IMG/VR virus record: IMGVR_UViG_2698536471_000018
Location: 1 to 39,898 of that record
DNA from: a virus
Lineage: Duplodnaviria; Heunggongvirae; Uroviricota; Caudoviricetes
Direction: 5' to 3' (one strand)
DNA length: 39,898 nucleotides
Shown: positions 37,034 through 37,608 of the stretch, piece after piece
How positions within the stretch are numbered: the first letter of the stretch is position 1
Layout of the letters: the number at the start of each line of letters is the position of its first letter
Program-made: the position numbers and the translations under genes
Notes under the pieces: generated by a model
Told to the model about the DNA's origin: nothing
Database searches by the model: none
The model's input: the letters and a program-made list of their open reading frames with translations, nothing else

Positions 37034-37504
37034 ATGACAAAATCATGGAGCGTACCTTTTCCTGAATCAGAAACTGAACATGATGGAATGCCTGTTTTCT
37101 GGAGATTCCAGGCGACAGTTGAAGAAGATGGGATAAAAATATTCGCACTTCAATATATAGCTTTTCATCAGACAGAGCATTATGCATGGTTGGTTCCTGC
37201 GCATTGGATTGTTAATTTTAAACCAGCACCAAATCAGTGGTTACAGGAATGGAAACAAAGGAGAAATAGATATGCAATTAAGAAAGTAGCAAAAAATGCA
37301 GAAAGATCTTTTGCATTCCCAACGAAGAAACTTGCTATTGAAAGTTTATTGCGCCGGAAGAAATACCATTTAATGAGAATAAAACAAGATTTGGCTGTTG
37401 TATCAACTCTTGTTGATGGGATGAAAAATATTGATACATCAACACCAGATATTGAATATAACTTTGGACACAACCAAGAAACAGAAAATTGGGTATTTTA
37501 TTAG
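37034..37504 (+). CDS. Hypothetical protein (156 aa) translationally coupled to N
   Basis: GAGGTGA RBS overlapping N stop; AT-rich; no recognisable motif. Confidence 0.55.
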   Translation: MTKSWSVPFPESETEHDGMPVFWRFQATVEEDGIKIFALQYIAFHQTEHYAWLVPAHWIVNFKPAPNQWLQEWKQRRNRYAIKKVAKNAERSFAFPTKKLAIESLLRRKKYHLMRIKQDLAVVSTLVDGMKNIDTSTPDIEYNFGHNQETENWVFY

Positions 37505-37608
37505 TACGAATAAGCACTGTGTATTCATTCCAACGAGTGAATACACGGAGCAATGTCGCTCGTAACTAAACAGGAGCCGACTTGTTCTGATTATTGGAAA
37601 TCTTCTTT

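Follow-up and report, generated by a model that had tools for sequence, protein, structure and literature searches.

Directly behind the antiterminator gene N of a mosaic lambdoid phage lies an open reading frame (ORF) of 156 amino acids (aa), followed by a perfect hairpin; what does the encoded protein do for the phage, and does the hairpin belong to its gene? We addressed these questions in IMG/VR virus record IMGVR_UViG_2698536471_000018 (Caudoviricetes), of which the whole stretch of 39,898 nucleotides (nt) is referred to here as the window. A sequence-only reading of the window had described the ORF as an unknown early gene without recognizable motifs, coupled to N, situated where lambda carries ral, and a candidate for an anti-restriction or anti-defence function. 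The best explanation for the observations presented below, to which we assign a probability of roughly 0.55, is that the ORF is a genuine accessory gene of the gp45/PHROG 1636 family and forms a portable cassette within a hypervariable slot of the lambdoid early-left (pL) operon, a slot that extends from a linker formed by the 3′ end of N, a ribosome-binding site (RBS) and the ATG to a boundary module of ~120 nt, with counter-defence or host takeover as the best guess at its mechanism.

A long-catalogued gene under purifying selection

The ORF list agrees with the sequence-only reading on the extent, ATG start and length of the ORF (Table 1), and the protein indeed belongs to no family with an assigned function; however, the ORF is not new, but a long-catalogued hypothetical gene. 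It matches PHROG 1636 ('unknown function') over residues 1–156 of 156 (E = 2.7e-112) and is 99.4% identical to gp45 of HK97 (AAF31125.1) and to an ORF of H-19B, and 100% identical to ST933Wp19 of 933W (NP_049479.1), vb_24B_11c of Phi24B, and ORFs of BP-4795, Stx2 phage 86 and many other Shiga-toxin (Stx) phages; the named relatives in HK97 and the Stx phages are all annotated as 'hypothetical'. The exact protein is encoded on at least 1000 contigs, and the full gp45 module is present in 563 of 5426 complete E. coli genomes (~10%). Close homologues (55–85% identity) are confined to Enterobacterales, and 21 full-length homologues of 156–163 aa share 40 invariant columns. For four homologues (63–83% identity), nonsynonymous divergence (pN) was 0.10–0.23 and synonymous divergence (pS) was saturated at ~0.8, giving pN/pS ratios of 0.13–0.26; the low pN relative to saturated pS identifies gp45 as a real gene under purifying selection. 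The gene is A+T-rich, with 33–37% G+C as compared with ~50–55% in N. In phage phi296 (L237, 1601–2071), gp45 starts with TTG rather than ATG, and the deposited annotation begins 54 nt downstream.

The absence of recognizable motifs was borne out by searches of Pfam, NCBIfam, PADLOC and the sequences of the PDB, none of which returned a match for either the single protein or a 62-member family profile; the best PADLOC hit was at chance level (E = 0.018, 12 bits), and no curated defence model was matched. No match between gp45 and the Ral profile (PF11058) was found in the Pfam and NCBIfam searches. The 156-aa sequence was not found in the supplements of the accessory-gene screen of Silas et al., which recovered Ral.

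A profile search of 1.8 billion representatives extended the family to 86 relatives at E < 1e-3, most of them phage proteins of 130–155 aa with ~20–25% identity, which fall in PHROGs 1636, 13631 and 25384 (all 'unknown function'); a Pfam domain was found in none of these distant relatives. Seven distant homologues could be placed on contigs, most of them in blocks of small early-type genes and four with an integrase within 5 kb; one (L003) lies among tail and capsid genes, and the contig of another (L239) shows only a terminase. In four of the seven contexts (a raw count), the 1.5 kb preceding the homologue contain, in the same orientation, an orphan Dam/cytosine methyltransferase gene or a Lar-type restriction-alleviation gene; in a fifth, a Lar gene is located ~5 kb from the homologue in the opposite orientation. 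Such neighbors would fit an anti-restriction neighborhood, but they are common in regions of this kind.

A confident fold and a basic core with an acidic tail

Structure prediction and fold comparison, which the sequence-only reading had proposed as a check, yielded a confident model without a solved relative. The final AlphaFold model, built from 46 sequences after distant members had been added to the 21 close homologues that gave an earlier, unusable model (predicted local distance difference test (pLDDT) score of 56), reached a pLDDT of 92.5 and a predicted template modeling score (pTM) of 0.79. It comprises three long antiparallel strands (residues 19–30, 33–46 and 50–55), two short helices, a further strand (83–86), a 33-residue helix (98–130) and an extended tail. 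Comparison with solved structures gave no fold match, and neither an oligonucleotide/oligosaccharide-binding (OB) fold nor any known DNA-binding fold was detected in the model. In BFVD, 12 viral matches were found at E < 1e-3, every one an uncharacterized phage protein, including proteins from phages of Erwinia, Achromobacter, Delftia, Sinorhizobium, Rhizobium, Tenacibaculum and Cellulophaga.

The protein has an isoelectric point (pI) of 9.07, and pI exceeds 8 in 57 of 62 family members. The family median charge is +6 for the segment comprising residues 83–131 and −3 for the C-terminal tail, which ends with a conserved aromatic residue (F155) followed by an acidic or aromatic one. Invariant residues of the 46-sequence alignment are G33, T47, K87, R91, A94, A101, K109 and F155; in the 62-sequence family, G33, E/Q46, T47, K87, A101 and K109 are the most conserved, and a conserved basic residue aligns with S92 of the 156-aa protein and not with R91. 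The sequence shows no evident signal peptide or membrane segment. A basic protein with an acidic tail is compatible with nucleic-acid binding, and the combination of a basic core with an acidic, aromatic-ended tail recalls self-regulating nucleic-acid-binding proteins. T7 gp2.5 and the single-stranded DNA-binding protein (SSB) of E. coli have a similar arrangement. With SSB proteins ('ssb' is a historical label of the neighboring ea10 slot), gp45 shares this arrangement as a resemblance only; an OB fold was not detected.

A cassette slot between N and a conserved boundary

The location ascribed to the ORF, the place at which lambda carries ral, proved to be the very same slot: gp45 is flanked by the same 5′ linker (3′ end of N, RBS and ATG) and the same 3′ hairpin–terminator segment as orf28–ral. 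Identity among the window, HK97 and 933W is ~99% over a stretch that starts ~50 nt before the ATG and runs slightly beyond the first terminator; on either side of this stretch, the three sequences are unrelated. In other E. coli prophages, the linker ending in ...CCACTTATTTGAGGTGAGATATG precedes either orf28 plus ral (MS 196-1) or an unrelated ORF of 86 aa (FRIK944), and the RBS itself lies in a conserved linker, ATTTGAGGTGAGATATG, that is found ahead of many different cassettes. The conserved 3′ segment starts exactly at GCACTG (37514), at the base of the hairpin, and is common to these prophages and to lambda, in which it lies between ral and ea10.

A census of slots bounded by both the 5′ linker and the 3′ segment motifs gave 84 distinct slots with 27 ORF families, some of which are probably spurious, in many combinations of one to four genes; from these sequences, the slot appears to draw on at least 15–25 unrelated families of small ORFs, including orf28–ral. 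The window has gp45 as its sole cassette. The cassettes with Pfam families are Ral (the 66-aa cassette of the slot, PF11058 at 4e-48), an Nmad5-domain protein and a DUF7446 protein; apart from these, no Pfam family was found in the cassette families scanned (ten alternative families and orf28), the ten all being 'unknown' in PHROGs. The Nmad5 ('nucleotide modification associated') domain (PF18757, E = 7e-72) occurs in a family of 207 aa (F12, for example in L125), and a family of 121–149 aa (F3, for example in L037; PHROG 3054) resembles a small membrane protein with hydrophobic segments; the contents of the slot are thus functionally heterogeneous. Within arrays, two joints recur, namely the terminator-like GGCCGCATAGTCGGCC-TTTATTTTTGG and the RBS linker mentioned above.

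In the census, gp45 (39 slots) and Ral (27 slots) occurred together in 0 of 84 slots. Strict mutual exclusivity is nevertheless contradicted by phi296, which carries the array N–74aa–orf28–ral–gp45, an order also found in phi367. As Ral and gp45 occur together in phi296, the two are stackable cassettes and not functional alternates. A 28-aa, extremely acidic and aromatic-rich ORF (MEEEFEEFEEHPQDVMEQYQDYPYDYDY) is nearly always found with ral (29 versus 27 slots) and starts at the conserved RBS linker (for example, L092, 2511–2597; L095, corresponding to lambda 34271–34357, minus strand); the lambda record labels it 'ral'. From its composition, it is possible that this ORF encodes a DNA- or protein-mimic peptide.

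Lambda Ral and gp45 therefore have in common the pL slot, the 5′ linker in several prophages, the 3′ segment in lambda, and the character of small non-essential early genes. By contrast, there is no sequence relationship between them: Ral, a factor that relieves type I restriction and promotes modification, has 66 aa and is Cys-rich, whereas gp45 has 156 aa and is basic. In lambda, sieB is located between N and ral, while in the window gp45 abuts N. The lambda terminator tL1 also lies between N and ral and makes ral N-dependent. Downstream, the conserved segment follows ral and is succeeded by ea10 in lambda; in the window, it follows gp45 and is succeeded by a second terminator and cIII.

The 'moron' concept arose from the comparison of HK97 with HK022; a classical moron has a promoter of its own and is active in the prophage state. 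The gp45 cassette, by contrast, has no such promoter and would be part of the immediate-early pL transcript. It does resemble morons and the cassettes of accessory hot spots in being A+T-rich, dispensable, flanked by a terminator, exchanged among otherwise unrelated phages and found together with a gene of proven anti-restriction function; hot spots and anti-defence islands of this type have been the subject of accessory-gene screens (for example, PMC12373910).

The hairpin opens a boundary module

The perfect 9-bp hairpin is present exactly as the sequence-only reading had described it, with GTGTATTCA (37519–37527) separated by a 10-nt spacer from TGAATACAC (37538–37546). As RNA, it forms a stem of 14 bp (37517–37548) with two G.U pairs, a CAAC tetraloop and no internal loop (−21.7 kcal/mol, z = −6.7). 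The window contains six perfect 9-bp inverted repeats with loops of 3–12 nt, as compared with 1.6 ± 1.45 in dinucleotide shuffles; such repeats are hence not rare by chance, and the case for the hairpin is a comparative one. In lambda, 46 nt past the ral stop (34013–34040), the hairpin is identical in 28 of 28 positions, and a segment of ~123 nt that includes the GCCCTC/GAGGGC terminator is ~96% identical. This lambda-like segment is found, at 95–100% identity, in 2236 of 5426 E. coli genomes, whichever cassette precedes it. A gene-specific origin of the hairpin was rejected because it follows ral in lambda. On this comparative evidence, the hairpin is the first element of a boundary module that follows the last cassette, and not a feature of gp45; its earlier assignment to the gp45 unit is therefore not upheld.

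The 28-nt hairpin is invariant among ~210 loci, with one exception. This second allele, TATAGCAGA-tttacgag-TCTGCTATG, is present in L019 (3976–4003), L032 and 69 E. coli genomes; eight of nine outer stem positions are changed with pairing kept, ahead of the same inner pairs and the same downstream sequence. The RNA of this allele folds into an 11-bp stem capped by a UACG loop (−14.6 kcal/mol, z = −3.5). The second allele speaks for a requirement for a stem-loop as such at the end of the array, the two alleles being too few to constitute a statistical covariation test. A scan of viral contigs by protein returned only copies identical at 100%, which are useless for covariation. The lambda ral–ea10 segment also appeared on low-coverage contigs assigned to Pseudoxanthomonas, Shewanella, Pseudomonas, Bacillales and others (L216–L232), several of them ~48.4–48.5 kb long; these are almost certainly lambda DNA contamination of sequencing libraries and not prophages.

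A 186-nt region that contains the hairpin and ends in an intrinsic terminator is far more structured than shuffled sequences (z = −5.8). It has no Rfam match, even at E values up to 10; known prophage small RNAs (sRNAs) described in the literature map elsewhere, and no paper on the hairpin was found. Canonical RNase III substrates, such as lambda sib or the N leader, are mostly paired over about two turns (~20 bp), and an internal loop frequently interrupts them. The 14-bp stem, without an internal loop, is shorter than these. Interpretation of the hairpin as a nut site, in which boxA precedes a short boxB stem with a purine-rich pentaloop, was rejected, since the boxA-like CGCTCGTAA lies 3′ and not 5′ of it, the stem has 14 bp, the loop is CAAC and a better nutL candidate exists upstream of N (Table 1); its interpretation as a bidirectional terminator was dropped as well. 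The same boxA-like motif, which lies in the conserved spacer behind the hairpin, is probably coincidental.

The terminator that the sequence-only reading had placed before cIII is present, but there are two and not one (Table 1). Alignment with lambda, 933W and HK97 shows that the first is homologous to a lambda terminator at ~33,930, just upstream of ea10, and the HK97 annotation has a 'putative terminator' at this point. We take the lambda terminator to be tL2a; the tL2 terminator cluster of lambda was reportedly described by Luk and Szybalski in 1983. The second terminator is common to HK97 and E. coli MS 196-1, and absent where ea10 follows.

The N–gp45 junction and the timing of expression

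The gene upstream of gp45 was identified as N by its match to PHROG 271 (E = 2e-36) and an arginine-rich motif, NARNRRRARRQAQR; its score against Pfam N_peptide was below threshold. The overlap on which the proposed coupling to N was based is as had been stated: the TGA of N (37023–37025) is overlapped by the RBS GAGGTGAG (37024–37031), and the ATG of gp45 follows 8 nt past the N stop. The last ~17 codons of N belong to the conserved 5′ linker of the slot, and the C-terminus of N reads ...KLGSKPLI* in the window; this ending, ...KL(G/S)SKPLI*, also occurs in the diverged phage L087. The gp45 homologues of two diverged lambdoid phages (protein identity of 83% and 71%) likewise lie directly after a different N, with an equal overlap of stop and RBS and an intrinsic terminator at once 3′. 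The junction RNA has no significant local structure (z = +0.55 versus shuffles), so that any translational coupling would be by proximity only; sequestration of the RBS was dropped as a coupling mechanism, because the junction is no more structured than shuffled sequences.

HK97 gp45, 933W ST933Wp19 and Phi24B vb_24B_11c are the same protein (99–100%) in the same place after N, with the same downstream hairpin and terminator. HK97 and 933W differ from the window in their upstream N, a different protein of 127 aa (H-19B-type), the gene for which stops 58 nt earlier, at GG-TGA-C. A mosaic joint falls within the N gene (window 36985–37033; L001 of HK97 and L002 of 933W, both 2943–3000); in HK97 and 933W, the final ~50 nt of a window-type N gene survive as an 'intergenic' remnant. 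This remnant holds a mini-ORF of nine codons (ATG AAA TTA GGC AGC AAA CCA CTT ATT TGA), the stop of which overlaps the gp45 RBS.

A terminator scan detected no intrinsic terminator between pL and 37609, those at 37609 and 37647 being the only ones between pL and cIII, and a promoter scan detected no promoter-like site inside N. In the lambda paradigm, expression of genes located 5′ of the first pL terminator precedes the action of N. Together, these considerations lead us to infer that expression of gp45 is immediate-early and independent of N. In the mechanism that we favor, the first pL transcript, made independently of N, would carry gp45 along with N, and gp45 would be translated either by ribosomes coming from N or by ribosomes that load at the RBS overlapping the N stop. 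Within the first minutes that follow infection or induction, the protein would bind either nucleic acid itself or a host enzyme that has nucleic acid as its substrate, and this binding would protect or favor the incoming phage genome, as counter-defence or as host takeover. The hairpin in the messenger RNA would most likely act as a barrier to 3′-to-5′ decay or as a processing signal just 5′ of the terminator, and its conservation may also provide an anchor for homologous recombination that shuffles the cassettes.

Organization of the early-left region

The window represents a mosaic lambdoid phage: of the deposited phages, JEP4 matches best, with coverage of 41% of the final 20 kb, and none matches the window over its full length. 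The + strand of the window runs in the leftward direction of lambda. Assignment of pL follows from the location of the promoter-like site 3′ of cI and 5′ of N, as in the lambda layout, and the putative nutL was assigned by analogy with nutL annotated at an equal offset from N in 933W and Phi24B. Operator-like repeats (TTAGGTTAT / ATAACCTAA) occur at 36400–36500, including a perfect 9-bp palindrome (36460–36488) that overlaps the pL-like −35 hexamer. The 98-aa membrane-type ORF lies directly 3′ of cI, which is the position of rexAB in lambda, and the terminator behind it looks bidirectional; the ORF is a candidate for a prophage-expressed exclusion or defence gene. Beyond cIII, kil is followed by an AAA_24 ATPase gene (38136–38816), a gene for a 195-aa protein without family (38813–39400) and a gene for a P22-type Abc2 anti-RecBCD protein (39424–39720; PF11043, E = 1e-35); the last three stand where lambda has gam–bet–exo. 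No Ral is encoded in the window.

Table 1. Positions of early-left features in the window, in order along the + strand.
Feature	Position	Strand	Details
cro	34877–35122	opposite	
cI	35183–35920	+	
98-aa membrane-type ORF	35961–36257	+	PHROG 18389 (unknown function); N-terminal hydrophobic segment
Terminator after 98-aa ORF	36262–36281		
pL-like promoter	36468–36496	+	TTGACC-17-TATCTT; promoter scan
Putative nutL	36543–36583	+	boxA-like GCTCTTTAA (36543–36551) and boxB-like hairpin TCCCGC-cgaaat-GCGGGA (36566–36583); read from sequence
N-type antiterminator gene	36726–37025	+	99 aa; PHROG 271
RBS	37024–37031	+	GAGGTGAG
156-aa gene (gp45 family)	37034–37504	+	ATG start
Conserved stem-loop	37517–37548	+	perfect 9-bp core (37519–37546); 14 bp as RNA; CAAC loop
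Conserved spacer	37549–37608	+	weak second stem (GUCGCUC/GAG-CCGAC), z = −0.68, alone not significant
First intrinsic terminator	37609–37634	+	GCCCTC-ccgtgt-GAGGGC (37609–37626) plus T-run CTTTTTAT; terminator scan; −10.7 kcal/mol, z = −2.9
Second intrinsic terminator	37647–37671	+	AACGCTTC-actc-GAGGCGTT (37647–37666) plus TTTTT; directly 5′ of cIII leader
cIII thermoregulator RNA	37683–37741	+	Rfam RF01804, 88.5 bits, E = 8.5e-22
cIII	37697–37860	+	ORF list; downstream neighbor, outside the cassette

Discussion

The identity of gp45 as a conserved, selected gene, the architecture of its slot and the homology of the hairpin with that of lambda are direct observations, and a role of gp45 in counter-defence is, judged by its position, a plausible and moderately likely hypothesis. 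Several points weigh against the explanation given above. The positive charge of the protein is equally compatible with roles other than nucleic-acid binding, and the novelty of its fold is defined by comparison with the PDB and BFVD only. Immediate-early expression, which we deduce by analogy with lambda, would be compromised by Rho-dependent termination within N–gp45, which is possible. Methyltransferases are common in prophage early regions, and their proximity is weak evidence. The ral neighborhood amounts to guilt by association, as the other cassettes are without assigned function and the status of the slot as an anti-defence island is not demonstrable from its contents; moreover, phi296 carries both Ral and gp45. 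The census is biased, about half of the loci having been fetched via gp45 itself, and the invariance of the hairpin, of which there are two alleles only, could reflect recent spread of the segment and not selection. Finally, a literature search by gene name, accession and locus tag found no paper on gp45.

Three other roles for the protein were weighed. The notion that gp45 is a nucleic-acid-binding regulator or accessory factor of phage development, acting in transcription, lysis–lysogeny, replication or recombination (one version being an SSB-like helper), seems to us somewhat unlikely. It would suit the basic core and the acidic tail with its conserved aromatic end, as well as the location of close and distant relatives in early-left operons between immunity and recombination/integration modules, where the gene directly adjoins xis/AlpA in two contexts; however, no OB or known DNA-binding fold was detected, neighbors in distant phages are inconsistent, and phage populations can do without the gene, gp45 being absent from most lambdoid phages and the slot content being freely exchanged, which is more accessory-like than core. 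A closer functional parallel with Ral, in which gp45 would modulate or block type I restriction–modification in phages without ral, is decidedly unlikely. The co-occurrence in phi296 and phi367 shows that the two are not substitutes, gp45 resembles Ral in neither sequence nor size, and known DNA-mimic anti-restriction proteins are acidic whereas gp45 is basic; set against this are the slot and flanks shared with orf28–ral, the absence of ral from the window, the Lar and methyltransferase genes near distant homologues, and the separation of gp45 and Ral in the census, which is subject to the bias in locus fetching noted above. It is very improbable that gp45 is a prophage-expressed moron for lysogenic conversion or superinfection exclusion, despite its low G+C content relative to its neighbors, its wide distribution in prophages and the presence of sieB in the N–ral interval of lambda, since no promoter-like site was found upstream within N, no PADLOC match was obtained and no signal peptide or membrane segment is evident; located on the pL strand 8 nt behind N, the gene would, by the lambda paradigm, be expected to be repressed by CI in the lysogen.

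Two further explanations concern the hairpin. The hairpin-to-terminator region might be a functional RNA, either a processing site for RNase III or RNase E or an sRNA derived from the 3′ end of the pL transcript. Its predicted structure, the intrinsic terminator at its end with an A/U-rich stretch before it, its retention in ~2200 E. coli genomes irrespective of the upstream cassette and the compensated stem of the second allele would all agree with this, and prophages of enterohemorrhagic E. coli are known to encode Hfq-bound sRNAs (PMC4104026). We nonetheless consider it unlikely, given the lack of an Rfam match at E values up to 10, the location of known prophage sRNAs elsewhere, a stem that is short for a canonical RNase III substrate and a second stem that is not significant. 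Scarcely credible is a DNA-level recombination site for cassette capture similar to integron attC. Integrons combine an imperfect palindrome at the 3′ end of each cassette with an adjacent IntI integrase, whereas the gp45 slot has a single hairpin per array and no integron-type integrase gene nearby; its internal junctions use other linkers (GC-rich terminator-like, or RBS), and the long identical flanks are enough for ordinary homologous recombination. The position of the hairpin exactly at the boundary of the variable array, the palindromic nature of both alleles and, in phi296, a GCACTG direct repeat that brackets the gp45 cassette between the ral 3′ linker and the hairpin are the features that speak for such a site.

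The preferred reading of gp45 as a portable accessory gene can be extended, with less confidence, to a more general one. PHROGs 1636, 13631 and 25384 may together form a new class of immediate-early counter-defence proteins, with a fold unseen in solved structures, that would neutralize DNA-targeting defence by way of phage nucleic acid or a defence enzyme; the slot from N to tL2a would then be a dedicated counter-defence array of 15–25 mostly uncharacterized families, shuffled via RBS and terminator linkers and closed by a selected stem-loop.

The significance of gp45 lies in its carriers, which include clinically important Shiga-toxin phages (933W, H-19B, Phi24B and BP-4795), HK97 as a model phage, and prophages in roughly a tenth of complete E. 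coli genomes. Should gp45 prove to be an ordinary dispensable accessory gene, little would change. Because it lies directly behind N and 5′ of the first terminator, shares its slot with ral and has a confidently predicted fold unmatched among solved structures, gp45 is a candidate for counter-defence and host-takeover screens, and with the ~15–25 other cassettes of the slot it forms a compact, well-delimited list for them. The linkers of the slot, for their part, offer a concrete and testable example of how homologous recombination at short boundaries may shuffle lambdoid accessory genes.

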